From assembly GCA_017857875.1 (NCBI GenBank), contig JAFMCH010000003.1:9390-73389 (forward strand): a stretch of DNA of 64,000 bases, written 5' to 3'. Below the pieces are notes generated by a model. It worked only from the letters and a program-made list of their open reading frames with translations. It searched no databases and was not told where the DNA came from. The stretch comes from Actinomycetota bacterium. Lineage in GTDB: Bacteria > Actinomycetota > Actinomycetes > S36-B12. The translations under genes were made by a program, and so were the position numbers. This document shows positions 1 to 64,000 of the stretch, one piece after another. Position 1 is the first letter of the stretch, and every line of letters starts with the position of its first letter.

Positions 1-155
1 GGTGAGTCCTGCAGTAGTCCTCGAAAGGTCAAAGCCATCTCATCGGCAGTGGCCCGTGGATCGGTCTTGACGCGCCAAGAGCGAGTAAACACATCGCCCT
101 CGAAAAGCCCGATCACGGTGTTGGTGTTGCCGACGTCCACGGCGAGCAGGGTCAT
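1..155 (-). CDS. coaX: Type III pantothenate kinase, N-terminal part (gene runs off the window start)
   Basis: Manual minus-strand translation from ATG at 153-155 gives [39 protein letters not shown]. The DVGNTN phosphate-binding motif is typical of CoaX. The start forms an ATGA overlap with the stop of the upstream nadB-nadC ORF. Confidence 0.8.
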
Positions 156-2656
156 AGCACTTCCTCTAGGTCGGCACCAATGTCGAGCACAGCAGACGAA
201 TGCGTGAGTGCGCCCACTGCGAGGTAATCGACACCGGTCGCGGCCACCTCTGCGGCATTGTCCAGTCGTAGTCCACCCGATGACTCCAATCGAGCGCGCC
301 CTCCGGTCCGTTGGACCGCAATCGCCGTGTCAGCAACGGTGAAATTGTCGAGCAGCACCAAATCAGCACCGGCCTCAACGACCGCCTCGAGCTGATCGAG
401 CGAATCGACTTCGACTTCAATGGGAACACCCGGAAATTGTTGTCGTACAGCAGAAAAGGCGGGTACAACCCCACCAGCAGCAACGACATGATTGTCCTTA
501 ACGAGTGCCGCATCAGACAACGACATGCGGTGGTTGACTCCACCGCCGCACCGCACGGCGTACTTCTGTAACGCTCGCATCCCCGGCATGGTCTTTCGCG
601 TATCGCGGATCTTCGCGGCGCTGCCCTCAATGGCTTCAACCCACTTGCGCGTGTGGGTGGCGATCCCGGACAGGTGACTCACGAGGTTCAAGGCTGTGCG
701 CTCAGCCAGCAGCAGGTCACGCGTGGTGCCGGTGGCGGTCACAATCACGTCTCCTGCAACCACGGCCTGGCCATCATTGCGGTCGACCTGCACATCAACG
801 GAGCCACTCGCTGCGATAACAAACACCATCGCAGCGACCGGCCCACCCGCCACGATGCCCGGCTCACGAGCAACCAGTCTCAGTCGCGATCGCTGCTCAA
901 TCGGCACCGTTGCCACCGATGTCACATCAACGCCACCGGCTAGGTCTTCGGCAAGAGCGCTCGCAATCAGTTCTTCTACCGCGGTGGGATCAAGGCCGGC
1001 GTCCACGAGCATCGCAGCGACCGGTTCAGCGGGCATGGGCGTCAGATTCTCACGCCGGGTGTCCCATTGCCGCTGCGGGGTGTGTGCGGAGACGAGGTGA
1101 ATTCGCCAATGAGCGTCATCGCGCACGGGGAAATCCTCCCGCCAGTGCGAGCCCCTGGTTTCCTCTCGGAGGAGTGCATGATGCACCAGTGCTTGAGCTA
1201 CCAGGCACACATTGGTCGACTCCCAGTCTGCCGTGCTCGGTTGTCCACCAGCCCGATCCGCCAGTACGTGAAGTTCTTGTGCAGCTCTCGTCAACGACCG
1301 ACTACCGCGTAGCACCCCGGCGTTGGTGGTCATAATCATCTGCACCTCGGCTAGAGCTGCCAGCGGGAGCAGCTCGACAACAGCATGGTCGGGCACGACC
1401 GCACGCACCTGATCCCGTCGGTCAACGAGTGACTGGCCAATTCTCTCAGCGAAAACCAAACCCTCAAGTAGCGAGTTCGAGGCAAGTCGATTGGCGCCAT
1501 GTACACCGGTGCAGGCCACTTCACCGCAGGCATAAAGACCTCGAATCGACGTTCGACCTTGTAGATCCGTGCGCACACCACCGGACACGTAGTGGGCAGC
1601 AGGAGCCACCGGAATGAGGTCGTGCACCGGATCAATGCCGTGTTCGAGACACGATGCATAAATTGTGGGGAACCGCTGTTGCCACTTGTCGGCACCGAAG
1701 TCGCGCGCATCAAGCCACAGGTGTGGCACACCGTCGGCAAGCATTCGCCTCATGATTGCCCGCGACACCACATCTCGGGGTGCAAGATCAGCAAGCGGAT
1801 GCTCCGCAGCCATGAAAGTCTGCCCGGCGGTATCTCGCAACACTGCACCTTCTCCACGCACCGCTTCGGACACCAGCGGTTGCTGTCCGCGTGCCGCAGC
1901 GCCCAACCACATCACCGTCGGGTGAAATTGCACGAACTCGACGTCGGCAATCTCTGCCCCGGCCCTGATCGCAAGGGCAAGCCCATCGCCGGTTGCCACC
2001 GACGGATTCGTTGTTTGGGAGAATACCTGCCCGAATCCACCCGTGGCCAAGACAACTGTTGGCGCCAACGCAGCACCAACGCCGTCTCGGGTTCCGGTGC
2101 CGATCACGTGCAACGTCAGCCCCTGCGCTGCGCCGTCTCTATCAGTCAGTAGATCTAATGCCAGGGCTCTCTCGATCAATTCAATGCCCGGGTCTGCCCG
2201 CACGGCGGATACGAGCGCGCGACTGACCTCTAACCCGGTCGCATCACCTCCAGCGTGCGTGATGCGGTCACGCAAGTGACCACCTTCTCGGGTGAGGACC
2301 AGCTCACCGGCAGCGTCAACATCAAAATGCGCGCCGAGCGAGATGAGCCGATGCACCGCTGCCGGGCCTTCGTTGACCAATAGGTCAACGGCCGCCTCAT
2401 CACATAGTCCGTCCCCGGCGATCAGCGTGTCGTGAAGGTGCTCCCTGGGTGAGTCGTCTTCAGCAAGGGCCGCGGCGATTCCGCCCTGGGCCCATCGAGT
2501 GGATCCCTCATCAACGCTCCCCTTAGTCACCAGCAAAACACGCAGGCCGGCCCTTCGTGCATGGAGCGCGCAGGTCAGTCCGGCTACTCCTGATCCGACC
2601 ACCACAACGTCGGCGCGCACCTGCCAGGTCGGATTCGGTGCCTGAAGACGACTCAC
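152..2656 (-). CDS. nadB-nadC: Fused L-aspartate oxidase / nicotinate-nucleotide (quinolinate) pyrophosphorylase
   Basis: Single 834-aa ORF. The N-terminal ~540 aa is an FAD flavoprotein ([24 protein letters not shown], NadB-like throughout). The segment from ~[26 protein letters not shown] to the end matches the NadC pattern. There is no stop between the two modules. Confidence 0.88.
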
Positions 2657-52333: not shown

Positions 52334-53668
52334 CTATGTGCGTCGTGGTGGTGGGTGGGTGGTCCAGTGTTTGTGGTGGAAGCGTTGGTGGAAGGTGAGT
52401 TGGGTGTTGGCGTCACCGTGCATGGTCCAGTCGCCGTGGTGGATGAGCCGGTGATGGTAGTAACACAGGCCAGCGAGGTTGATCATCGTGGTGTGGCCAC
52501 CGTGTGAGGCGTAAATAATGTGATGGACCTCATCGATGCGTTGCGCGCAGTGGGGGAACCGGCAGTGGGTGTCGCGTGAGATGACGGCTTTACGGATGTG
52601 GGCTGGCACGGCACGGACATTTTGCAGCGTGGCGATGATCTGTCCCTCAGCGTTGATCATCAGTGGGCTGATCACCCCATCACAGGCCAGACGTTGAGCA
52701 CTGGCCGCGGTGACGGCGGCATGGGGGACCCCGAACCGTTCTAGGACACCCATCGCGTGGTGTTGGGAATCAGCGAGCAAGGAATCCAACGCGATAGTGA
52801 CCGACAGTACGGGCCGGGCACCATTGACCTGGGGTAACACGTAACTGCCAGCCTCATCGCGGGCAGCTACCGCGGCGGTGACTAGGCGCTGCAAAGCATC
52901 AACATTGCGTTGACTCACCGCCACCCACGCCTCCCCCTCACATTCAAGTGCAGGTGCAGATGCAGGTGCGGGTGCGGGGGTGGTGGCATCGGGGGTGGTG
53001 GTCACATCGCGGCGGGCAGCCTCTAGGGCGTTGACAAACAGTGCCCCGACCTCAGGGGGCAACAGCCCATCGACTCGTACCGCACCATGCAGGGTGGTCG
53101 AGGCACGCAGGTAGTAGTCGTGACGGCGGTCATGGCCATCAGCATCGACCGCATCCGGGTCCACCCGATGACACAACGCGAGCAGGTCACGTTCGAACCG
53201 GTGAGGATCAGCGACCCGCGCCAGTTCCACAATATGTTCCTCCGCCTGGGTCAACATGATCCCCAACCGGGGAAACCTTTGATGGGCTTTGGCTAACACC
53301 TGCAGATGCCCCGCCGAGACCACACCATCGCCAAACGCGGCCCCCATCACCCGATACTTTCGCTGCATGATCCCCAACCGGGTCATGCGGGCGACCCCAC
53401 CACGGGAATCATTCACCCGACCAGTGATCCATGCCTGACCTGACCGGGCCCCATCCACACCCCACGCACCCTACACACAAAACCGGTCAGCCAACCGGGC
53501 CTGCGTGGCCTCGAGTTGTCTGAGCTGGGCCCCCAACGCCACCACCACCTCACCCACACCAGCACCGGGCAGATCAGCGGCATCAATATTGGCGAGCACC
53601 TCAAGGCCCTGGGCCACCATGGCGACCCCATCAGCAACACTAAAGGCACATCCCCCGTTATCGAACAT
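52334..53668 (-). pseudogene. DUF222 / HNH endonuclease gene interrupted by one in-frame TAG
   Basis: The C-terminal ORF (52334-53458) has the HNH block (HCRFPHC...DEVHHIIY...YYHHRLIHHG). The 65-aa ORF at 53471-53668 has a DUF222-type N-terminus in the same frame. The two are separated only by TAG at 53471-53473 plus 4 sense codons. Confidence 0.7.
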
Positions 53669-53765: not shown

Positions 53766-56360
53766 CTAGGCAATCTGTCTAGTAACCAACGACTTGAAGA
53801 CACCGTCTATAGCCATGAGTTCATCGAATGTGCCCGACTCCACAGCGACTCCAGCATCGAGCACGACGATGAGATCAGCAGAACGGATAGTCGAGAGTCG
53901 ATGCGCCACGATTACGCGTGTTGCGTTGAGCTCGGTCATGGCGTTGGTGACTTCTAGTTGACTTGCATTGTCCAGCGCACTGGTCGCTTCATCAAGAATG
54001 AGAATCGCCGGTTGCCGGACAAGGGCACGAGCCAACAGGATTCGTTGAGCCTGTCCGCCTGACACGTTGCTCGGGTCAACAATTGTTTGCATCTTCATGG
54101 GCATTGCACGAATATCGTCTGCCAGCGCAGCTTTCTCGGCCGCCGCCCACGCTTTGTCCTCATCGGTTGAAGTCGCGCCCAGGATATTACGAATGATCGT
54201 GCCGCGAGTGATCGCGCCGTCTTGAACCACCACCCCCATTTGGGCACGCACAAGGGTCGGATCCAGGCTTCGCAGGTCGCGTCCATCAAACAACACCTGG
54301 CCCTGTTCAGGCGTGTCAAAACCAAGGAGCAGTCGCGTAATGGTCGACTTACCAGCGCCTGAGGGGCCGACTAGCGCCACCATCGATCCCGCTGGTACCG
54401 CGAGGTCAAGGCCCTTGAGAACTCGAGGCCCGTCATGGGTGTACCGAAACACGACGTCTCGCAACTCAATATGGCCGCTGAGTCGACCTGGATCCTGACG
54501 ACCAGCAGATACCTCCGGCAACTCCTCCATGATGGGCGCGAGCAGGTTGAACGTTGGCCCAGCATTAGCCAGGGGTGAAATGAGCGATGAAAGACCAGCG
54601 ATGGCGGCAAACACGAGTCCATAGGCGCTGGCAAAAGATAGGTAATCAGCGGTGCTGATCGGCGCGGTGTCTCCTGACCAACTCAGCAGGATGACCAAAT
54701 AGAACGCCGCCGAGGCACCTGAAGCACCGAAGATGAACCACGAACTCATGCGGCCGACGACGAGAGTTTCGCGCGACTGAGCAACTGCCTGCCGACGGGC
54801 GATATCGAAATAACGTGCTTCCATTTGTGGCTCAGCCGAGGCGAGACGGATCTTGACGATGCCACGCAACATCTGAACCATCCACCCATTGGCCTCACGC
54901 TGAGCTGCGAGTGTCAACGTTGCGTACCTTGAGATAGATCGAATCGCAATGGCGAGCACTACACTGCAAATGAACAAGAACCCTGTGCCTGCCAGCCCTA
55001 GCCTGACGTCGTAATAGAACATCAATGCGAGATTGACAACGGCGAAAACGGCCGCAAGCAACGCACTAATGACCTGGGCACTGAGAAGTGCCTGCAAACT
55101 GTCGACTGCCATGACCCGCACCGTGAGGTCACCTGAGCTGTAGCGCCTAAAGAAACTAGCGGGCAGCGAAAGCACTCTATCCCACATAGCGGCCTGTGCC
55201 GTGAGTGTGGCGCGTTGCGAAATAGCCGACACCGTGAAGTTCTGCACCATGGTGAATACGAAAGCCACACTGGCGGCAATGATGAGCGCGCCGCCAATTT
55301 GCAGGAGGCGTGAACTTTCACCGGAGGGGATGATGCTAGCGATGGTCACGTTGGTCAGCACCGGAGTGAGTAGGCCAAGCATCGCAACTCCGAAAGCCAT
55401 GAGGGCCGCAAAACCCCACAGGCCGTTCATACCTCGTGTTCCCAATCGCACAATGTCGCGAACCCGAATCGACCTGTCTTGCGCCAATGGCGGGTAAATC
55501 TCATATGCAGTCGGAACAAGCTGATCACGTACTTCAGAAGTCAGTGGCAGAGCTCGCGGGTCGGTAGGTCGTTGGATGGCATACCCGCGACCGGATCGAA
55601 ACAGTGCGACAGGTGTCGGTTTCGAACCAGGGACAATCAACGTGGCTAGATAAGAACTTCGTGACGCTTGCTCCCATCCAGGTGTCAACGTGACCGTGCG
55701 GTACCTCACTCCGCAGGTGTGTGTGATCAACCTGATCGGATCATGTGCAGCCTTGAGTTCGTCGATGGTTGGCGACTTGACTGGAAAGTTCAGGTGAGCA
55801 CCCAACATCGTCATGACTGCGATAAGCGGCTGGATAGAGGTGTCAACGACAGGGTCCTTGAGCGTGTGGCTGGAGTACTCAAAGGTCGTGAGCGCCTGGT
55901 TGTAGACGGAGAATCCCGCCTCAGCCGCTGCTTTCGCCGTGGTATCTCGCCGATTCTTCGCGTCTTCGCGAGCAGACTGCACAACGGTTACGAAGGTCGG
56001 TGCAAACTGCGCAAGCTCGGCTGACGCGAGATCGCTCGCCGAATCTCCCAACTCATCACTGACCCGAGCTGCGAAGGTCGACGTCATTTCCTGCGTGATC
56101 TCAGGAGCAGGATCAAGTAAACGAGCAACCCCACCCTGTCGCGGCACAGCGATGAGATCAAGCCCATCAGCACCTAGCGCTTGATCTCCATGGGTGAGCG
56201 TTGCCACCGGAAAGCGAACTCCACCTTCATCCCGTGAAAACAGATCTACCGTGCCAGCGGTTACTTCCACCACGCTGCCGGTTGCGGGCAGCGCGACAAT
56301 GCGTGCGTCTTCAGTGTCATGCGTGGCATTAGGTTCCGACATCGCCACCATCTCCTGCAT
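53766..56360 (-). CDS. ABC transporter permease/ATPase with non-peptidase N-terminal extension (NHLM bacteriocin-system type)
   Basis: 864 aa. About 330 N-terminal residues lack a catalytic Cys motif. Six TM helices follow, then an NBD (GPSGAGKST, LSGGQAQR, ILILDEATSALD). It overlaps the upstream ABC gene by up to 32 nt. Confidence 0.85.
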   Translation of the reverse strand: MQEMVAMSEPNATHDTEDARIVALPATGSVVEVTAGTVDLFSRDEGGVRFPVATLTHGDQALGADGLDLIAVPRQGGVARLLDPAPEITQEMTSTFAARVSDELGDSASDLASAELAQFAPTFVTVVQSAREDAKNRRDTTAKAAAEAGFSVYNQALTTFEYSSHTLKDPVVDTSIQPLIAVMTMLGAHLNFPVKSPTIDELKAAHDPIRLITHTCGVRYRTVTLTPGWEQASRSSYLATLIVPGSKPTPVALFRSGRGYAIQRPTDPRALPLTSEVRDQLVPTAYEIYPPLAQDRSIRVRDIVRLGTRGMNGLWGFAALMAFGVAMLGLLTPVLTNVTIASIIPSGESSRLLQIGGALIIAASVAFVFTMVQNFTVSAISQRATLTAQAAMWDRVLSLPASFFRRYSSGDLTVRVMAVDSLQALLSAQVISALLAAVFAVVNLALMFYYDVRLGLAGTGFLFICSVVLAIAIRSISRYATLTLAAQREANGWMVQMLRGIVKIRLASAEPQMEARYFDIARRQAVAQSRETLVVGRMSSWFIFGASGASAAFYLVILLSWSGDTAPISTADYLSFASAYGLVFAAIAGLSSLISPLANAGPTFNLLAPIMEELPEVSAGRQDPGRLSGHIELRDVVFRYTHDGPRVLKGLDLAVPAGSMVALVGPSGAGKSTITRLLLGFDTPEQGQVLFDGRDLRSLDPTLVRAQMGVVVQDGAITRGTIIRNILGATSTDEDKAWAAAEKAALADDIRAMPMKMQTIVDPSNVSGGQAQRILLARALVRQPAILILDEATSALDNASQLEVTNAMTELNATRVIVAHRLSTIRSADLIVVLDAGVAVESGTFDELMAIDGVFKSLVTRQIA

Positions 56361-58554
56361 CAGACACCATCTGCGCGTACGCTCCCGCAGCGGCCATTAA
56401 GTCATCGTGCGTGCCCCGCTCCAAAATTGCCCCAGCGTGACCCAGCACGATGATTTCATCGGCATCGCGAATCGTGCTGAGGCGATGAGCAACGATCAAG
56501 CACGAGAGGCCTCGATGGCGAAGCGCCTCATCAACGGCTTGCTCCGTAACATCGTCCAGGGCACTCGTTGCTTCGTCCAAGATGATGACGCGGGGGTTGC
56601 GCGCCAACGCTCGAGCGATTTCGATGCGCTGACACTGTCCACCGCTGAAGTTACGTCCCGTCTCGTCGACTCGGCAATCCACGCCATTGCTGCGGGCGAG
56701 TACATCGTCAAGGATCTGAGCGTCACCTAACGCTCGCTCGATCTGATCGGTGGGGATTGTGGAGTCCCACAACGTCACGTTCTCTCGAACCGTTCCTTCA
56801 AACAGCACAATGTCTTGATCAACCTTGGCGATGTAACGTTCCAACGCACCTAAAGGCCACTGCGCTAGCGGGCGTCCGTCGTACAGCACCTCACCGGTTC
56901 GTGGTTGGTACAGGCCGGCGGCAAGATTTGCCACGGTGGTCTTTCCAGCCCCTGAGCCGCCCACCAAAGCAACTCGATGGCCCGGTTTGAGTTCCAGCGT
57001 AAGGCCGTCAATCACCAGCGGGCCGTTGTCGGAGTATCCGAATGAAACATTGTCGAGCACGATGCTGCCTGTATACGGGGGCAGTGGAGCGTCGGCCGTG
57101 AGAGCCGGTCGATCGAAACGTGAGTCTTGCTCATTTGCCAAAACGTCGTCCAACGCCTGCAAGCTGGAGGTAACGATCTGGAGTTGGCCACCGGTTGCCA
57201 TCAGCGTTTGAATCGGACTGTTGAGGTTGGCGGCGAGCGCGCTCACGGCCAAAAGTCCACCGAGAGTGAATGAGCCCTCCATGACTAACCATCCGCCCAG
57301 CACCAGGATGCTCGCACTCGTCAACGAGAACAGCAGTCCAGGAAAAGCGACCAGCAATGCCGAACTCGGCACGAGAGCGGCGGTCGCGCTGACGTAATCA
57401 GATTGCTGGCCGGTCAAGCTCGTGAAGACATCGTCTTCCATGCCGGTGGACTTCACCGTCTCAATACCTTGAATGGACGCGGTAGTCGTACCACGAAGTT
57501 CGTTTTGGCGACGGATCACTCGACTTTGGGTGCTCGTTCGCTTATCCATCACGAGCCGAAGAAGCACGACGTTAGCAAACGAAAGGAGCAGCACGACAAG
57601 GCCAATGAGCCAACTGTAATAAATCAAGAGCGCCGCATAGCCGATTGCCCCGATCAGAGCGATGCCAGCAGTGCCCATTTGAGTGGCCAAGAGCGAGGCC
57701 ACGGTTGAGTTATAACCAACGCGTTGGGAGAGGTCGCCGGTCGAGCGTTCGTCATAGAACCGCAACGGCAGGTGGATCAGCCGATCGACGAAAGATGCTG
57801 TGCCAACGAGGGTCAACTTTGCCTGAAGCCGGGTTATCACTCCGTACTGGAGCAGGGTCATGCCACCACGGAGCAAACCGATAATGAGCAGGATCGACAT
57901 GAGTGTGACGAGGAGTCGACGATCAGAACTCTCGAGTACCCCGTTGATAAACAACTGGCTGACCGGAGCAAGAACCAAACCCAGCAGCATCGCGATGAGA
58001 CCGGTAGCGATCGCGAAATTTACTCCACTCTTGCTCTTGCGTAGACGTTTCCAAAGGCCCGGTGTGGCACGGTATCGATGTCCGGCAGGAACGAAAGAGT
58101 CAGACTTCGTGAAGGTGATCGCTGCACCCGAATACATGGCGGCAAAGTCTTGGGAATCAACGGTGTAGCGGCCACGCGCAGGGTCATTGACATAGAAAGT
58201 TCCGCCGTGGGCTCCCTCAAGCACCACGAAGTGTGAACGTCGAACCCAGATGATGGCTGGAGTCGACATGTCATTGAGGTCGTCGATCGTGCCGCGGTGA
58301 CCTTGAGGCTCGAGCCCGTACTGTTCGGCCGCCTGCATGATCGCGATGGCGCTGGCCCCGTCACGTGACACCCCGCAGGCCGCACGCAAGGTGTCCAGGG
58401 TCTCCCACCGGCCGAAGTACGCGAGCACCATGCCCAGGCTTGCCGCACCGCATTCGACCTGCGCTTGTTGCAATATCGTCGGCACCTTGACGCGTTCGGG
58501 GCTGGTGATCACCGCCGTGCCTGGCGCCGCCGGGGCAACATCCGGCTGGGTCAT
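56329..58554 (-). CDS. C39-peptidase-domain ABC transporter (leader-cleaving bacteriocin exporter)
   Basis: 741 aa. The N-terminal C39 domain has a catalytic Cys context (QQAQVECGAASLGMVLAYFG) and a His context (SHFVVLEG). A TM domain follows, then an NBD (GGSGAGKTT, FSGGQCQR, VIILDEATSALD). Confidence 0.9.
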   Translation of the reverse strand: MTQPDVAPAAPGTAVITSPERVKVPTILQQAQVECGAASLGMVLAYFGRWETLDTLRAACGVSRDGASAIAIMQAAEQYGLEPQGHRGTIDDLNDMSTPAIIWVRRSHFVVLEGAHGGTFYVNDPARGRYTVDSQDFAAMYSGAAITFTKSDSFVPAGHRYRATPGLWKRLRKSKSGVNFAIATGLIAMLLGLVLAPVSQLFINGVLESSDRRLLVTLMSILLIIGLLRGGMTLLQYGVITRLQAKLTLVGTASFVDRLIHLPLRFYDERSTGDLSQRVGYNSTVASLLATQMGTAGIALIGAIGYAALLIYYSWLIGLVVLLLSFANVVLLRLVMDKRTSTQSRVIRRQNELRGTTTASIQGIETVKSTGMEDDVFTSLTGQQSDYVSATAALVPSSALLVAFPGLLFSLTSASILVLGGWLVMEGSFTLGGLLAVSALAANLNSPIQTLMATGGQLQIVTSSLQALDDVLANEQDSRFDRPALTADAPLPPYTGSIVLDNVSFGYSDNGPLVIDGLTLELKPGHRVALVGGSGAGKTTVANLAAGLYQPRTGEVLYDGRPLAQWPLGALERYIAKVDQDIVLFEGTVRENVTLWDSTIPTDQIERALGDAQILDDVLARSNGVDCRVDETGRNFSGGQCQRIEIARALARNPRVIILDEATSALDDVTEQAVDEALRHRGLSCLIVAHRLSTIRDADEIIVLGHAGAILERGTHDDLMAAAGAYAQMVSDAGDGGDVGT

Positions 58555-59420
58555 TCATTGCCCCCGAATAGCAGGTCAATCGGGTGAATGTAGGCATAGG
58601 TATTCGTGATCTCGACGATCTCACCCGGAATAGGAATGGGAGATCCGTTATCGGGCCAACTATCCAAGGTCAACAGAACTCGATAGGGAAATCCACCAGC
58701 ATCGTCGAGCCACTGCTGTGCTAGCGGTTCAGAAGCGCTTTCAGCCAACATTGCCTGAAGCGAGGACGGACTCTCCCCCACGTCATCGATGGTGGCCTCA
58801 GACTGGGTTGTGACGTTGGACGACACATTGGACACGGTCACCTGAACCGTGTCGCCCTTCGTGATCGTTTCGGCAATCGTGGCCGGCACAAACGTGACTA
58901 TCTTGACTTGGCTCGACGTGTCGACAAGCGTCACGAGCGTGGCGAGCGCATCCCCGGCCTCTACACCTTGGCCCTCCTCCACATAAAACTCCGTCACCCG
59001 ACCCGAAGCACCGGCGAGAACGTCGACCGTGGGGCCGCCATCAAACTCGGCAATCGAGGCAATAACGGAGTCATCTGACTTTGGCCCGTCGACCGGGGTC
59101 GGAAGTGAGACGATGCCTGACGTGGGGGCGCTGATCACCTCACTGTGGTAGAGCGCCGAGACCGTGCCAACGGCTGATACCTGTTGAGGAAGCGAGCCCA
59201 CAAATGACCACACCAACACGACACCAATTGCAGCCAGGGTGACCCATAGTGCCCACCAGCCGTGCGGGGTCGTCGTTCGAGTGACCTCGTCAAGGGATTC
59301 TGGGCTTGCCGATGATGCGGAACCTGTTGTCGAAACTGACTCAGGCATCTGATTGATCCCTTCAAAGCCCTTCAGGTGAAGCGCATCTAGTGCGCCACTG
59401 CCCACGCCGGACGACTGCAT
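58551..59420 (-). CDS. HlyD-family / NHLM bacteriocin-system secretion adaptor
   Basis: 289 aa with a single N-terminal TM helix (WWALWVTLAAIGVVLVW) and barrel-sandwich-like blocks (SGRVTEFYVEEGQGVEAGDALATL). It forms an ATGA overlap with the C39 ABC gene. Confidence 0.78.
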   Translation of the reverse strand: MQSSGVGSGALDALHLKGFEGINQMPESVSTTGSASSASPESLDEVTRTTTPHGWWALWVTLAAIGVVLVWSFVGSLPQQVSAVGTVSALYHSEVISAPTSGIVSLPTPVDGPKSDDSVIASIAEFDGGPTVDVLAGASGRVTEFYVEEGQGVEAGDALATLVTLVDTSSQVKIVTFVPATIAETITKGDTVQVTVSNVSSNVTTQSEATIDDVGESPSSLQAMLAESASEPLAQQWLDDAGGFPYRVLLTLDSWPDNGSPIPIPGEIVEITNTYAYIHPIDLLFGGNE

Positions 59421-59595
59421 CCTAGAGGTTGCCTGCCTCGGGGCAGCCAGCCCCCATTCAGGTACTTGGTCATCGTGCGTGTTTTCACCTGCATCAGGGT
59501 CGCTCGACCAAGTAACAAGCCCACGCTGTCCTATACGTTGCCATCGGCGACCGGCGTCTACGTCAGCGCCGGCCCACCACCTAAAGGAGCATCAC

Positions 59596-59850
59596 ATGAG
59601 CAATACTTTCCACGAAACCGCCAAAGCTCTCGCCGAGAACGACGAGTTGCGCAACAAGGTCATGACCGCAGGTTCAGCTGAAGAGCGCGCTGCTGTTCTG
59701 CGTGAGGCTGGCGTACCCGTGCCCACGCACGCCGACATCAATGCTGCCCACGCCGAGGCGAACATGGCCGGAGTCGACGGCGGCAACACCACGACTTCCA
59801 TCATCAAAGCTGCTGCTCCTGCGGCAGCAGACGCTGCGGCAGCAGCCTGA
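59596..59850 (+). CDS. RiPP precursor peptide A, Nif11-type leader ending in GG, 21-aa core NTTTSIIKAAAPAAADAAAAA
   Basis: MSNTFHETAKALAENDELRNKVMTAGSAEERAAVLREAGVPVPTHADINAAHAEANMAGVDGG|NTTTSIIKAAAPAAADAAAAA. An AAAGGAG Shine-Dalgarno lies 7 nt upstream of the ATG. The helical leader with EE...REAG and a terminal double glycine fits the Nif11 N-terminal domain pattern. Confidence 0.8.
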   Translation: MSNTFHETAKALAENDELRNKVMTAGSAEERAAVLREAGVPVPTHADINAAHAEANMAGVDGGNTTTSIIKAAAPAAADAAAAA

Positions 59851-59995
59851 TCTATCGGCCTGCTAGGTGGGTGTCGCGCATGTTTTCACCCGCATCACCA
59901 TCCCTGACGAATCAACCGGGGATACCCGAGCAGTAGGTTGACACAACCGGCCGACGACCCACCCGGCGTCGTCGCATGACCAAGAGGAGAATCAC

Positions 59996-60250
59996 ATGAG
60001 CAACACTTTCCACGAAACCGCCAAAGCCCTCGGCGAGAACGACGAGCTGCGCGCCAAGGTAATGGCCGCTGGTTCCGCTGAAGAGCGCGCTGCTGTTCTG
60101 CGTGAGGCTGGCGTACCCGTGCCCACGCACGCCGACATCAATGCTGCCCACGCCGAGGCGAACATGGCCGGAGTCGACGGCGGCAACACCACGACTTCCG
60201 TCATCAAAGCTGCTGCTCCTGCGGCTGCAGAAGCTGCAGCCGCGGCCTGA
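59996..60250 (+). CDS. RiPP precursor peptide B, Nif11-type leader ending in GG, 21-aa core NTTTSVIKAAAPAAAEAAAAA
   Basis: This 84-aa paralogue differs from A at 5 residues (A13G, N20A, T24A, I69V, D79E). A GAGGAG Shine-Dalgarno lies upstream. Confidence 0.8.
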   Translation: MSNTFHETAKALGENDELRAKVMAAGSAEERAAVLREAGVPVPTHADINAAHAEANMAGVDGGNTTTSVIKAAAPAAAEAAAAA

Positions 60251-60263
60251 TCTATCGGCCGAA

Positions 60264-60306
60264 TTAGGTGGGACCTGACATCTGCGTCAGGCCCCACCTA
60301 ATTTTT
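60264..60306 (+). terminator. Intrinsic terminator/attenuator between precursor B and ycaO
   Basis: TTAGGTGGGACCTGAC (60264-60279) pairs with GTCAGGCCCCACCTAA (60286-60301), 15 of 16 positions, around a 6-nt loop. TTTTT follows at 60302-60306. Confidence 0.6.
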
Positions 60307-60334
60307 CGCACAAACTCCCTACAGGAGCGATTCG

Positions 60335-61567
60335 TTGCTCAACTTTGACCCTCTCCTTACGCCGGCAGATTTTCCGCTCCCCGTTGGTATCGCGACCGAG
60401 TCGGGTCGCCGCACGAGACCGACCGAGGAATTGCGCGCCTTCCTCACCCCCCACCTCGAGGCCTATGGCATCACCCGGGTGGCTCATCTCACTGGTTTCG
60501 ATTACGTCGGACTCAATGTGCACATGGCCGTCAAGCCACAGGGGCGGAGTCTTTCAAGCGGCAGCGGCAAGGGGGCAACACCGGACGCAAGTTGGGTTAG
60601 CGCTGTTATGGAATGTTGCGAACAATCCGTGTGGGAAACCCTCGACCTGGATCTCATGCACAGCAGCCGCACCATGATGCAGCGACTTGGCGCCACCGTC
60701 GTTGACGGTCACTCCCTCCCGCAGGTGAAGGGTGCGCACTGGCATGACGACCTGCCGGTTGATTGGACACCGGGCTGGGACATTGTCGCTGGTGAAGAGG
60801 TGTGGGTCCCAGCAGCCATGGTGATGGTGAATCAACCCGGTCGCGGCCCCCGTATGCCGTTTGTGAGTGGCTCCAACGGTTTAGCGAGCGGCGCCCACGT
60901 ACTGGAAGCCCTGTTGTCTGGTTTGCAGGAAGCAATCGAACGCGATGGCCTCACCCTGCGCACGATCATTAATCCAGCGCCCTACGTCAACGGACTAGAC
61001 ATCCTGCGACAAGCTGCTCCAAGTGTCGCCGAACGCATCGAACGTTCAGGCTTGATTCTCCAGACTGTCAATGCGACGACCGAAATAGGCGTCCCCATCG
61101 CAGCCGCGTACTTGAAGGAGCATGAGGGTGGCACTACCGGTTCCTTTAAAGGCATGGGAGCCGGGCTAAGCATGAGCACGGCCTTAGTACGAGCGGTGAC
61201 CGAAGCCGCGCAATCGCGGTGCCTCATTGTGGCCGGGGCGCGCGATGATCTGTTCGAAACCTCACGTTCTGCGTCGGTCAGCAAGCCCGCACCCAGACAC
61301 GAGATTCCCGTCGGCAACCTGGAGGCCGGAACTGATTACGCGACGGGAAGCGTTACCGGCGATATCGAATGGATGGTGACACAACTGGTCGCCTCAGGTT
61401 TCGAACGTGTCATCGTTATTCGACACACGGCTCCGGAAGATCCCGTGCAGGTTGTTCGCGTCATTGTTCCTGGGCTGGAGGGATATCCATTTTCCTCGGC
61501 CGCACCTGGCCAACGGGCCAAGACTTGGAGACCAGCAAGCGCAATGGCAGATAGCGGTGGCCAATGA
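60335..61567 (+). CDS. YcaO domain protein (ATP-dependent peptide-backbone-activating enzyme)
   Basis: 410 aa with a TTG start 7 nt after AGGAG. The YcaO blocks are SSGSGKGATPDASWVSAVMECCEQSVWE and SNGLASGAHVLEALLSGLQEAIERD. No E1-like or Ocin-ThiF partner gene is visible. Confidence 0.85.
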   Translation: MLNFDPLLTPADFPLPVGIATESGRRTRPTEELRAFLTPHLEAYGITRVAHLTGFDYVGLNVHMAVKPQGRSLSSGSGKGATPDASWVSAVMECCEQSVWETLDLDLMHSSRTMMQRLGATVVDGHSLPQVKGAHWHDDLPVDWTPGWDIVAGEEVWVPAAMVMVNQPGRGPRMPFVSGSNGLASGAHVLEALLSGLQEAIERDGLTLRTIINPAPYVNGLDILRQAAPSVAERIERSGLILQTVNATTEIGVPIAAAYLKEHEGGTTGSFKGMGAGLSMSTALVRAVTEAAQSRCLIVAGARDDLFETSRSASVSKPAPRHEIPVGNLEAGTDYATGSVTGDIEWMVTQLVASGFERVIVIRHTAPEDPVQVVRVIVPGLEGYPFSSAAPGQRAKTWRPASAMADSGGQ

Positions 61568-62979
61568 TCGGGCCAGACATCGTCTTCCTGGGCCCCTCGC
61601 TCTCGCATGCCGAGGCGCAACGAATCCTGCCCCATGCGGTCATTTTGCCTCCGGCAGCAATGGGTGACGTGCTCGCTGCATCCTTGAAGTACCAACCCCA
61701 CGCCATCGGACTCATCGATGGCACGTTCTTATCAACCATGTCTGTCTTCCACAAGGAACTGCTCTTCGCCATGGAGCAAGGCGCGTGGTTACTCGGAGCG
61801 AGCAGCATGGGTGCATTACGCGCTGCCGAGTGCGCGGCCTACGGCATGATTGGCGTGGGTCAGATCTACGAAGACCTAGCCTCGGGCCTGCTAGAAGACG
61901 ATGATGAGGTTGCCCTCACGCATGCTGATGCCGAGGCGAATTTTCGGTCACTGTCAGACGCCATGGTGACGATCCGGGCGACGCTGGCGGCCGCTAACGC
62001 AGCCAACCTCCTGACGGATGACGAGACCACGGTTCTCCTTCAGCAGCAGAAAGATAGGTGGTTTCCCGACCGGCGACTCAGCGGCGTAATCGCCGATGCA
62101 GTCGATGCAGGTCTGACCGCTAATCGAATCACGCGACTACGCGAATTCGTGCGAACAAGCCCCGTCGACCCCAAGCGACAAGATGCCATCGCATTGCTTG
62201 AACGCATGAAGTCCTTGCCGCCGGGTCGCATGCCTCAAGGAGAGCGGCCCGAAACGTATATCTCTGGAGTCTTCGCCGCTACTTTGGCTCGCGATGTCGC
62301 CGTCAGCACGAACAATGGCACGCCAGTCACGCTCGATCGACTGCGCCGCTATGCGGCGTTGCATGATCCACACTTCACAGCCGATATGTCAGCCGCCAGG
62401 CGCGCCATGGTGCTCAGTGAAATTTCACGCTGGCTGGGTGGGCAGCCAACCGAGGCAGAACGCAGCGCGGCCCGCACGCTCGTTGCCGAGAAGGTCGGGA
62501 TTAAGGAATCCGAGATAGACGACTGGGCGACAAGCGTCGATCTGCGCGACAGCGACCTTCGCCAACTCATCGGTATGGCAGCCCTCATCCATCGTGTCGA
62601 GACAAGTTGGCTGGGCCGATCGCGACTCGGCGAGATCACCACGCCATATCTGAATCACCTACGCCTTGAGGGAAGATACGCTGAACTCAAAGAGGCAACA
62701 GCCTTGCAATACGCTGCTGCCCAGGGAGTTACCTTCACACCCGCACCCTCAATTCAGCAACTGATCGGGTCGATGGTGGCCACGAGTTCCTGGCAACTTC
62801 CCACCGACATTCAGCAGTACATCGAAGCGACCGAGTTGGGATCAGTAGCTGAACTCATTGCCGCCATTGAAGTGTCGATCAAGGCTCATCAAGGGTTGTA
62901 CGGCGTTGGTCTCGTCGATGGCGAGAACGACGTGAAGATTGTCGAAGATGGCGAAGCCTTCATGTCCCGAGGCAACTGA
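61564..62979 (+). CDS. TfuA-like protein with long C-terminal extension
   Basis: Its ATG overlaps the ycaO stop (ATGA). The N-terminal ~130 aa match the TfuA pattern (IVFLGPSL...ILPPAAMGDV...HAIGLIDGTF...VFHKELLFAMEQGAWLLGASSMGALRAAE...GMIGVGQIY). The remaining ~300 aa are unassigned. Confidence 0.82.
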   Translation: MIGPDIVFLGPSLSHAEAQRILPHAVILPPAAMGDVLAASLKYQPHAIGLIDGTFLSTMSVFHKELLFAMEQGAWLLGASSMGALRAAECAAYGMIGVGQIYEDLASGLLEDDDEVALTHADAEANFRSLSDAMVTIRATLAAANAANLLTDDETTVLLQQQKDRWFPDRRLSGVIADAVDAGLTANRITRLREFVRTSPVDPKRQDAIALLERMKSLPPGRMPQGERPETYISGVFAATLARDVAVSTNNGTPVTLDRLRRYAALHDPHFTADMSAARRAMVLSEISRWLGGQPTEAERSAARTLVAEKVGIKESEIDDWATSVDLRDSDLRQLIGMAALIHRVETSWLGRSRLGEITTPYLNHLRLEGRYAELKEATALQYAAAQGVTFTPAPSIQQLIGSMVATSSWQLPTDIQQYIEATELGSVAELIAAIEVSIKAHQGLYGVGLVDGENDVKIVEDGEAFMSRGN

Positions 62980-63779
62980 TGCCGCTGATTCGACCGTCAA
63001 TCACCGACGGAACTGCACCGCTCGTGCCCCATGACCCGCTGCCGCTGTGGCGAGTCACGAATGAAGAGGTAACTCTAGGATTGCCGGGGCTTGGTGCTGT
63101 CACTGTTGATGTAGACGGCATCACCACTAACGCACCAGACGATCTCCTCCGCCAGCAGACCTGGTCTCGTCTGGGTCTGTGGGCAACCGGTCAGTGGTAC
63201 GCGCTTCACGGATACCTCGTGCTGCCAGGCGCAACAGTTGCGCGTGATACCGAAGCCACCGCGATCGTCGGTGCCTCTCGCGCAGGTTCCTCAGTTACGG
63301 CCGTGCAACTGACTCGACACGGCTACTCGATCGTCAGCGACGGGTTCACGATCATCACCGGTGAGGGCATCGCCGTGTCACACACACCACATGCAGCAAT
63401 CGACTCATTCGTTGCCGAGAACTTGTTTCCGGACATGCCAAACACGGCTCGTGCGAGCGGGGCGCAGCGGACTAACATCATCGCTCCCGGTCACGGCGAT
63501 GCGCCCCTTCGATCCTTCGTGCTTCTACGCGAAAAGGCAGGGCTGGAACACATTCAGGTTCACCAGATTAATGACTGGACGGCGGCCATCTTTCGCAATC
63601 GCATCGTGAGTCCTGTGCTCCAAGCGCCCACGCCACCAACGTCACTATTGGCCCGCATGGCAGATCTACCTGCTTGGACAGTCACCCGGAGTTACCCAGA
63701 AAGCATGGACGATGCGAAGCATTTTGCACCTCCGGCCTTAGCGCTACGAATTGACCAGGTACTCAGGGGCGGCGAATGA
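62979..63779 (+). CDS. Hypothetical protein, possibly HPr-kinase-like with degenerate P-loop
   Basis: 266 aa, with its ATG sharing one nt with the tfuA stop (TGATG). The segment LHGYLVLPG...TAIVGASRAGSSVTAVQLTRHGYSIVSDGFTII resembles the HprK C-terminal core (G.SG.GKS...L...G..L.SDD), but the Walker Lys is absent. The function call is tentative. Confidence 0.4.
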   Translation: MPLIRPSITDGTAPLVPHDPLPLWRVTNEEVTLGLPGLGAVTVDVDGITTNAPDDLLRQQTWSRLGLWATGQWYALHGYLVLPGATVARDTEATAIVGASRAGSSVTAVQLTRHGYSIVSDGFTIITGEGIAVSHTPHAAIDSFVAENLFPDMPNTARASGAQRTNIIAPGHGDAPLRSFVLLREKAGLEHIQVHQINDWTAAIFRNRIVSPVLQAPTPPTSLLARMADLPAWTVTRSYPESMDDAKHFAPPALALRIDQVLRGGE

Positions 63780-64000
63780 GCCCGACAAGCGCAACCGCGT
63801 GGCTCGCGTCCTATCCGAAATCTGGAAATACTTGGGTTCGAGCGCAACTGAGCACACTTGAGTCAGGCTCGGAACCGGCCTTGAAGAAACTCGGTCGATC
63901 ACGAGAACACGATCGCATGTCCACGTCACTGGGAGTTCCACTCGGCGATTTATCTCCGGCCGAAACAGCCGCCGTGCTGCGCCTGTCCTGGACGATTCAT
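63776..64000 (+). CDS. Sulfotransferase-domain protein, N-terminal part (runs off the window end)
   Basis: This ORF is not in the track because it is still open at the window edge. Manual translation from ATG 63776, which overlaps the upstream stop as ATGA, gives MSPTSATAWLASYPKSGNTWVRAQLSTLESG. YPKSGNTW matches the PAPS 5'-phosphosulfate-binding loop (PKSGTTW) of sulfotransferases. Confidence 0.68.
   Translation, partial: MSPTSATAWLASYPKSGNTWVRAQLSTLESGSEPALKKLGRSREHDRMSTSLGVPLGDLSPAETAAVLRLSWTIH

Follow-up and report, generated by a model that had tools for sequence, protein, structure and literature searches.

Gene clusters that place a Nif11-like precursor beside a TfuA-YcaO pair have been described bioinformatically by Malit et al. 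(2021), with no product reported (PMC8120280), therefore a thioamide-type cluster with a Nif11 leader is already known at that level. The Nif11/NHLP leader family and its NHLM-type exporter are credited to Haft et al. (2010), as cited in PMC8120280. In the thiovarsolin pathway a precursor, YcaO and TfuA are sufficient for thioamidation (PMC6511847), and the thiostreptamide YcaO-TfuA pair acts iteratively, giving consecutive thioamides on an Ala-Ile-Ala stretch (PMC8153245). Here we analyze a 64,000-nt stretch of an Actinomycetota genome (the window, whose numbering is used for all coordinates; L and P numbers denote compared loci and proteins), in which two small open reading frames (ORFs), precursors A and B, lie upstream of a YcaO-TfuA gene pair. 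We hold it to be very probable that A and B are genuine precursors of a peptide synthesized by ribosomes and then modified post-translationally (RiPP), made by the adjacent cassette, which looks like an uncharacterized RiPP family and a variant of the thioamide peptides. Like the clusters of Malit et al., it combines a putative Nif11-type leader ending in GG with neighboring TfuA-YcaO genes and family-specific ABC/HlyD export genes. Unlike those clusters, the family is actinobacterial, its core is Ala-rich with a Thr/Ser patch, and it encodes a long TfuA, an HPrK-fold protein (K266), a sulfotransferase and an M20 peptidase. We found no literature description of this actinobacterial family or its cassette, of Ala-rich/Thr-patch cores, of the long-TfuA subfamily or of a K266-sulfotransferase module beside YcaO-TfuA.

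The two precursor genes are laid out as follows.

59596..59850, + strand: precursor A, 84 aa; leader residues 1-63 at 59596..59784, core NTTTSIIKAAAPAAADAAAAA at 59785..59847, then the stop codon
59996..60250, + strand: precursor B, 84 aa; leader at 59996..60184, core NTTTSVIKAAAPAAAEAAAAA at 60185..60247, then the stop codon

Both translations follow the pattern MSNTFHETAKAL...MAGVDGG, then the core NTTTS(I/V)IKAAAPAAA(D/E)AAAAA, and a Shine-Dalgarno-like GGAG stands 6 nt ahead of each ATG. The GG occupies residues 62-63 in both proteins and each core is 21 aa long with no Cys, so that coordinates and translation agree with an earlier note that had read the ORFs at 59596-60250 in this way. 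Its count of five amino-acid differences at equal core length was reproduced (leader: A13G, N20A, T24A; core: I69V, D79E), but its figure of 13 Ala residues among the 21 of each core was too high, the recount giving 11 (52%). At the codon level the genes differ 15 times, with 10 synonymous and five non-synonymous changes (ratio of non-synonymous to synonymous divergence, pN/pS, ~0.2), and Ala codons of the core tail account for four of the synonymous ones. Nucleotide identity is 94% across the coding sequences versus 41% in the 150 nt upstream (ungapped comparison), regions that are not alignable without gaps. This synonymous excess and the restriction of identity to the coding sequence argue that A and B are two protein-coding paralogues, not a DNA repeat or a chance ORF, and they are probably tandem, diverging copies of a RiPP precursor with a Nif11-type leader.

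Precursor A, used as query in a protein search, returned 20 relatives, the best at 93% identity from a Candidatus Nanopelagicales metagenome-assembled genome (MAG), and scans of genomes and metagenome contigs gave 21 precursor loci; in all, public data held 36 unique full-length homologues. One protein from a Ca. Nanopelagicales MAG, P0001, has a core identical to that of precursor B. Spurious ORFs are common in GC-rich DNA and the opposite strand of the A/B region carries long overlapping ORFs, yet the idea that A and B are chance open frames and not genes was rejected on the comparative data: the 36 homologues share a conserved leader, synonymous substitutions are in excess, a Shine-Dalgarno motif is present and Nif11 is the sole family match, leaving chance a negligible probability.

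Across the 36 precursors, mean pairwise identity is 0.70 in the leader versus 0.52 in the core, and a protein-guided codon alignment of 19 distinct precursor genes put pN/pS at 0.38 (leader) and 0.52 (core), values that are crude because pS is near saturation. The cores range from 18 to 36 residues with 41% Ala. The Cys-free character claimed in the earlier note holds for A, B and 34/36 of the family, but not for the remaining two cores, which have one Cys each. Core position 3 is Thr in 25/36 and position 4 is Thr or Ser in 31/36; each of the last five positions is Ala in ~80% of precursors and the C-terminal residue is Ala in 28. The leader ends in GG, or in some lineages in GAG at the equivalent site. 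Even the second precursor of L016 (587-844), L017 (879-1136) and L018 (8373-8630), whose core (QSGSSSPWLMPNGGGATAAAAAANDSY) is very unlike the others, keeps a run of Ala and, N-terminally, a Ser patch. A core logo had been proposed in the earlier note as a check on its reading, and in it conservation is seen for the Thr/Ser patch as well as for the Ala-rich tail. As judged from this alignment, the patch (core positions 2-5) and the tail are selected traits of the family, and the conservation of both fits two separate recognition or modification sites without specifying which enzyme uses which.

An orphan paralogue of the precursor (L005:5580-5828, L014:6793-7041) carries the core NTNPSIPIAVGCSVAAASAN with one Cys; no cassette gene was detected by tBLASTn anywhere on the fetched locus, and the MAG from which it comes is also the source of the cassette-bearing contigs L006 and L007. 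At L008:3426-3682, in a MAG labeled 'Bifidobacterium breve', the precursor is split over two frames by a frameshift or an assembly error. Judging by isolate names, this label and that of L003 ('Bifidobacteriaceae') look doubtful for lake-derived MAGs.

We mapped all cassette proteins by tBLASTn onto the 21 precursor loci. The same gene order, ABC2-ABC1-HlyD, one to three precursors, YcaO, long TfuA, K266, sulfotransferase and a convergent M20, was observed in ~8 lineages of actinobacterial MAGs and metagenome contigs, with a cassette size of ~11 kb. The exporter trio is transcribed divergently from the precursor genes, and ycaO, tfuA, K266 and the sulfotransferase form a series of four genes, each overlapping the next at the stop and start codons. 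In 15/15 loci with downstream DNA available, the gene immediately preceding YcaO is a precursor, at a distance of a few hundred bases at most. The earlier note had taken the small ORFs to be RiPP precursors tied to the adjacent YcaO-TfuA pair and had asked whether homologous clusters lack them; with a precursor at this position in all 15 loci, its reading was borne out. Outside ABC2 and M20, the flanking DNA of one lineage is unrelated to that of another, which delimits the cassette and suggests M20 as a member. One exception is L003, which has no K266 and carries the sulfotransferase upstream of ABC2; the other is the orphan precursor of L005/L014. The producers are uncultured actinobacteria, apparently from freshwater as judged by contig and MAG names. 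The genes, their synteny, their domain identities and the pattern of conservation are established.

The synteny also bears on a different division of labor, in which the small peptides leave the cell with essentially no modification, as bacteriocin-like or signaling peptides of the double-glycine type, and YcaO-TfuA thioamidates another protein, as for McrA or ribosomal uL16. YcaOs that thioamidate housekeeping proteins exist, according to PMC13063428 and to the McrA family models, and the orphan precursor copy of L005/L014 lies far from any cassette gene. However, the position of a precursor directly upstream of YcaO persists in 15/15 loci from ~8 lineages while the outer flanks differ, the genes of the modifying enzymes lie downstream of those of the precursors and are coupled in translation, long TfuAs accompany Nif11-type precursors in distant cassettes too, and a conserved leader with a variable core is the pattern typical of modified peptides. 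We regard export of unmodified peptides as very improbable, and modification of A and B by the adjacent enzymes remains the preferred reading.

The presumed core enzymes of the pathway are encoded immediately downstream of precursor B.

60335..61567, + strand: YcaO, 410 aa, TTG start with AGGAG 7 nt upstream; PF02624, 3.2e-58
61564..62979, + strand: long TfuA, 471 aa, start overlapping the ycaO stop; PF07812, 3.2e-39; ThioGly_TfuA_rel, 197 bits
62224..62976, + strand: TfuA C-terminal domain, ~250 aa, all-alpha

The start of ycaO is 85 nt downstream of precursor B. The best NCBIfam model for YcaO is the McrA-glycine-thioamidation YcaO (153.7 bits), while the cyclodehydratase model for thiazole/oxazole-modified microcins (TOMM_cyclo_SagD) reaches 109 bits against a cut-off of 219; the closest solved structure is M. 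jannaschii MJ1094 (2.8e-16), with LynD at 2e-12. The TfuA domain comprises residues 1-218 of the long TfuA and matches PDB entry 6xp8 over residues 6-218 (2.6e-34). The archaeal McrA thioglycine system thus provides the best-scoring family models and structures for both proteins, but it differs in that it acts on a large enzyme instead of a peptide with a leader, and in its short TfuA of ~210 aa (217 aa in 6xp8). Together with the published precedent, these affinities make thioamidation the best-supported chemistry, and we consider it likely that the YcaO-TfuA pair thioamidates the core. The earlier note had called the poly-Ala tract a plausible YcaO-TfuA substrate, and the iterative thioamidation of Ala/Ile stretches (PMC8153245) supplies a precedent for that proposal; the Ala tract is a candidate site of the thioamides.

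Another chemistry at the same core would make YcaO a cyclodehydratase of the Thr/Ser patch, forming (methyl)oxazolines, with the long TfuA as a substrate-binding partner and not a sulfide donor. From the absence of Cys the earlier note had excluded thiazoline, lanthionine and S-aminovinyl-cysteine (AviCys) chemistry; A and B are indeed Cys-free, but (methyl)oxazolines made by YcaO from Thr/Ser are not covered by that argument, and the lack of Cys is compatible with them. The Thr/Ser patch beside the cleavage site is the most conserved feature of the core and offers the substrates of azoline-forming TOMM/cyanobactin-type YcaO systems, and YcaO also has matches to LynD/TruD (~1e-11 to 1e-12) and to the TOMM cyclodehydratase model (2.2e-31). 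Against this, YcaO scores higher with thioamide-forming YcaOs, the TfuA domain is intact and closely matches a characterized sulfide-delivering TfuA, and the partner genes of the azoline systems are not in the cassette: family searches and locus mapping detected no E1-like/Ocin-ThiF partner, azoline dehydrogenase or RiPP recognition element (RRE) gene there. Oxazoline formation is in our view quite unlikely, and thioamidation is retained as the expected activity.

An AviCys macrocycle and pyruvyl/His modifications are hallmarks of the thioamitides. No HopA1-lyase/phosphotransferase pair, decarboxylase, methyltransferase or oxygenase gene was seen in the cassette, and with neither these tailoring genes nor Cys we expect no AviCys macrocycle and no pyruvyl/His modifications. 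Membership in the thioamitides was rejected, the A and B cores being without Cys and the cassette without AviCys genes. What the family shares with thioviridamide and thiostreptamide S4 is the YcaO-TfuA pair and an Ala/Ile-rich stretch in a ribosomal core (PMC8153245); it differs from them in its Cys-free cores (34/36) and in a leader and export system of another type. A second comparison is with the thiovarsolins (varA-varY-varT), linear actinobacterial RiPPs for which a precursor, YcaO and TfuA suffice for thioamidation (PMC6511847). Thiovarsolins differ in their repetitive APR core and in having no Nif11 leader, C39 exporter or sulfotransferase/HPrK-fold module.

We then turn to the C-terminal domain of TfuA, for which no Pfam family was found. 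It is kept in every cassette at 43-57% identity. A word-indexed homologue search with this domain gave one match, and exhaustive searching with HMMER detected the domain in 62 representatives (50% clustering), almost always at residues ~225-470 of a ~470-aa TfuA. We looked up the genomic context of five further long TfuAs (L023, L024, L027, L028 and L030) and found a Nif11-type precursor in three of them (L023, L028/L029 and L030). In L023, YcaO and a long TfuA are accompanied by a precursor of 83 aa; its leader (MSNTY...AAGVPTPTKSDINAYV) is homologous to that of the window family, but its core is different and contains Cys-Cys. In L028/L029 the whole cassette is repeated, with a 79-aa Nif11 precursor of core NTMVHTPFSYNITYTTAAIVAMD, and in L030 a 127-aa Nif11 protein adjoins the long TfuA. 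These shared contexts indicate that the TfuA extension tracks the Nif11-type leader. A set of K266-like protein, sulfotransferase, YcaO, long TfuA and C39-ABC was present in L024-L026 and on the P0036 contig. At L027:3007-5421, the long TfuA is fused to a C-terminal O-methyltransferase (804 aa) beside a C39-ABC exporter and a cyclic nucleotide monophosphate (cNMP)-binding protein; no YcaO is detectable on this 10.5-kb contig.

Profile searches against the PDB gave no meaningful match with five TfuA C-domain sequences, and with 16 sequences they gave trigger-factor C-domains only, at a marginal E = 0.042. Three members of the domain family weakly match SurA_N or SurA_N_3 (E ~0.03), Pfam families with a relationship to the trigger-factor C-domain. 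Both results hint weakly that the TfuA C-domain may be an all-alpha peptide-chaperone module, and it is the best candidate in the cassette for a leader- or peptide-binding module.

Nif11 models are the sole family matches of A and B in Pfam and NCBIfam, all under curated cut-offs: PF07862 gave E = 4.6e-4 for A and 3.6e-4 for B (20.8-21.2 bits, cut-off 23.8) and TIGR03798 gave E = 5.4e-5 and 2e-5 (23.4-24.7 bits, cut-off 32.3). Precomputed Pfam records assign Nif11 to P0019, to the 79-aa precursor of L028 (marked weak) and to the 127-aa protein of L030. Nif11-type leaders have already been used for heterologous expression. On the opposite strand, the export genes precede the precursors.

53766..56360, - strand: ABC2, second ABC exporter subunit of the NHLM_micro_ABC2 type without a peptidase domain; Pfam ABC_membrane and ABC_tran
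56329..58554, - strand: ABC1, C39-peptidase ABC exporter; Peptidase_C39, 7.9e-30, with ABC_membrane and ABC_tran
58551..59420, - strand: HlyD-type membrane-fusion/adaptor protein; HlyD_3, 4.6e-7; NHLM_micro_HlyD, 1.9e-19 (under cut-off)

The top matches of this trio are the NHLP/Nif11 bacteriocin export models TIGR03796 (ABC1, 788 bits, cut-off 853), TIGR03797 (ABC2, 643.8 bits, cut-off 709) and TIGR03794, each under its equivalog cut-off. ABC2 is syntenic in L002, L003, L004, L013, L018, L019 and L022, and the HlyD adaptor in all loci that reach so far. The C39 catalytic residues of ABC1 are present in QVECGAAS (Cys), RSHFVV (His) and NDPA (Asp), and ABC1 is the predicted leader-cleaving and export subunit. 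A Nif11-type leader next to a C39 peptidase with its Cys, His and Asp makes cleavage at GG credible, in support of the site at residues 62-63 that the earlier note had predicted.

Downstream of the long TfuA, the cassette continues with K266 and the sulfotransferase, the latter of the type that uses 3'-phosphoadenosine-5'-phosphosulfate (PAPS).

62979..63779, + strand: K266, HPrK/PEPCK-fold P-loop protein, 266 aa; stop overlapping the sulfotransferase start
63776..64000, + strand: PAPS-type sulfotransferase, N-terminal 75 codons, cut by the window end; full length 273 aa at L001:3607-4428
~64590..65915, just outside the window (L001:4421-5746), convergent: M20 metallopeptidase (PRK07906-like)

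The public contig L001 is identical to the window; it completes the sulfotransferase and then enters M20, which follows the sulfotransferase in every clade locus reaching that far. From this arrangement M20 is probably a cassette member that serves in trimming or immunity.

K266 matches TIGR04352 at E = 1.7e-3 (17.5 bits, cut-off 200), and in a profile search of the PDB it matched HPr kinases only, in the P-loop region (E = 0.013). An AlphaFold2 (AF2) model with a predicted local distance difference test (pLDDT) score of 79 and a predicted TM-score (pTM) of 0.77 had HPrK/P (E = 1.9e-5) and PEPCK as its top Foldseek matches. The P-loop of K266, GASRAGSS (~residues 98-105), aligns to GDSGVGKS with the Walker lysine missing. 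No clade member examined has the Lys (loops GASRAGSS, GASRMGCS, GPRRTGAT and GGARCGAS), so that K266 is probably no canonical kinase; a distant homologue, L028:6465-7160, has RQGKSS. This pattern suggests a shift of the clade from a kinase to a non-canonical or scaffolding role. K266 stands immediately upstream of the sulfotransferase in the window family (apart from L003, which lacks K266), in L024, on the P0036 contig and in L028, and in the last three, more distant lineages the pair adjoins YcaO and a long TfuA. As the two genes are always consecutive, they most likely form a functional pair.

HPr-kinase homologues are known to phosphorylate lasso-peptide precursors of the paeninodin type, whose clusters sometimes include a putative sulfotransferase, and the combination of RiPP-precursor phosphorylation by HPrK homologues with cluster sulfotransferases is precedented only in lasso peptides (PMC8498205). 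The window family is like these clusters in encoding an HPrK-fold protein within a RiPP cluster. It is unlike them in that K266 has no Walker Lys, the cassette has no lasso cyclase or protease, and the cores end in Ala whereas paeninodin-type kinases target a Ser at the C-terminus. K266 as a kinase of the lasso type was rejected on the missing Walker Lys and the missing C-terminal Ser. The proposal of the earlier note that a kinase-like enzyme acts on TTTS is weakened by the same lysine and by the absence of the gene from L003; for these reasons, action of the sulfotransferase on the patch is the more credible.

The full-length sulfotransferase of L001 matches PF00685 (Sulfotransfer_1) at 6e-26, and its closest solved relatives are Teg12, Teg14 and StaL, which also act on peptide natural products. 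These enzymes sulfate phenolic hydroxyls of non-ribosomal aglycones, unlike the cores of the window family, which mostly offer only Thr/Ser hydroxyls. The 5'-phosphosulfate-binding (5'-PSB) loop ASYPKSGNTW, the His of KTH and the 3'-phosphate-binding (3'-PB) motif RDPR..S (YIVRDPRAIVAS) align with Teg12, and by these motifs the enzyme looks catalytically competent. That the sulfate is retained on the Thr/Ser patch is possible, and we put it forward tentatively.

Sulfation might instead be transient, the sulfotransferase, with or without the HPrK-fold protein, activating Thr/Ser for elimination to dehydrobutyrine (Dhb) or dehydroalanine (Dha) in TTTS, with the thioamides still made by YcaO-TfuA. 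Retinol dehydratase, which has a sulfotransferase fold and dehydrates via a sulfate ester, is among the solved structures that the sulfotransferase matches by sequence (1x8j, 3.9e-6), and thioamitide clusters dehydrate Thr by a phosphotransferase and a lyase (PMC8153245). The K266-sulfotransferase-YcaO-long-TfuA module of L024 also stands beside a fragment that by eye looks LanM-type. However, the cassette has no lyase-like gene (HopA1, LanL-lyase or LanB type), 34/36 cores have no Cys to capture a dehydro residue, and the sulfotransferase has its nearer relatives in Teg12/StaL, whose products keep the sulfate. We take this route, a counterpart of phosphorylation-elimination in thioamitides and class III/IV lanthipeptides, to be unlikely, and retain sulfotransferase action on the patch without elimination as the working assignment. 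The fragment in question (L024:2-1651), upstream of K266-like, sulfotransferase, YcaO, long TfuA, HlyD and C39-ABC genes, has GxxGxAG-type motifs and resembles a LanM/LanC-type lanthipeptide synthetase by eye only.

Three elements around the precursor genes may govern their expression.

59480..59496, + strand: 17-nt box TGTTTTCACCTGCATCA, 116 nt ahead of the ATG of precursor A
59881..59897, + strand: 17-nt box, copy 2, TGTTTTCACCCGCATCA, 115 nt ahead of the ATG of precursor B
60261..60309, + strand: hairpin and, after it, a U-run, in the spacer from precursor B to ycaO; folding free energy (dG) -31.3 kcal/mol, z = -5.9

The box, TGTTTTCACCYGCATCA, has exactly two matches in the window, one per precursor gene, with 0.02 expected by chance; related loci lack an exact copy. 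A role as promoter or operator element is possible. None of 200 shuffled sequences folded as well as the hairpin after precursor B, and folding found no significant hairpin 3' of precursor A. A consensus promoter/terminator scan gave no match and missed the hairpin at 60261..60309, which is, from its predicted fold, a probable terminator or attenuator that would set the precursor:enzyme ratio.

Taken together, we infer a pathway, in each of its chemical steps and modification sites, of leader-guided thioamidation, Thr/Ser modification, GG cleavage and export, and consider it on balance probable. The precursor genes would be transcribed at a high level, with the hairpin after B passing part of the transcription into ycaO-tfuA-K266-sulfotransferase. 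The modifying enzymes would hold the 63-residue leader, for which the TfuA C-domain is the best candidate binding module. YcaO would activate one or more backbone amides of the core with ATP and TfuA would supply sulfide, so that one or more thioamides would form, the conserved Ala-rich stretch being their most plausible place. The PAPS-type sulfotransferase would modify the Thr/Ser patch at core positions 2-5, with K266 probably a non-catalytic or atypical partner. The C39-ABC1/ABC2/HlyD exporter would then cleave after GG and secrete the 21-residue product, and the convergent M20 may trim the peptide or confer immunity.

Several observations weigh against this pathway or parts of it. The scores of Nif11, the exporter and TfuA/YcaO are top but below cut-off, which marks divergent members. 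The distant long-TfuA cassette of L023 has a core that is not Ala-rich, so that an Ala tract is no general requirement. For the TfuA C-domain, the proposed role is read from co-occurrence and from E values of ~0.03-0.04, and the AF2 model (two-sequence alignment) has a pLDDT of 45 and is unusable. K266 has no Walker Lys and is absent from L003, so that any role assigned to it is tentative. No precedent for a Ser/Thr O-sulfated RiPP was found in the literature, and the closest solved sulfotransferases act on phenols while most cores have no Tyr. M20, finally, could be merely a conserved neighbor.

The remainder of the window is ordinary chromosome, with folate genes, ftsH, tilS, hut genes, putA, katG and a photolyase, and Rfam and tRNA scans of the window gave no match. 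Directly beside the ABC2 end lies a DUF222 + HNH endonuclease gene (52334..53458, - strand) of the 13E12-repeat type of actinobacteria; it is absent from the other loci and may mark a variable or mobile junction. At 152..2656 (- strand), a single 834-aa ORF is an apparent NadB-NadC fusion, combining FAD_binding_2 and Succ_DH_flav_C (L-aspartate oxidase) with both quinolinate phosphoribosyltransferase domains.

Characterized thioamidated RiPPs are few and substrate recognition by YcaO-TfuA is poorly understood. The cassette described here is compact and well delimited and carries a Nif11-type leader, and the co-occurrence of an extra TfuA domain with this leader type provides a testable hypothesis of substrate recognition. 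A sulfotransferase/HPrK-fold pair that travels with YcaO-TfuA points to Ser/Thr sulfation or sulfate-assisted dehydration, for which we found no RiPP precedent. It is tempting to speculate that the family represents a linear RiPP class that combines backbone (poly)thioamidation of the Ala tail, O-sulfation of the Thr/Ser head and a hitherto unrecognized chaperone-like TfuA domain (resembling trigger-factor-C/SurA_N) reading Nif11-type leaders, although we hold this full combination to be rather doubtful. If true, it would provide, as far as we found in the literature, the first Ser/Thr-O-sulfated ribosomal natural product, from uncultured, apparently freshwater actinobacteria whose natural products are little explored.

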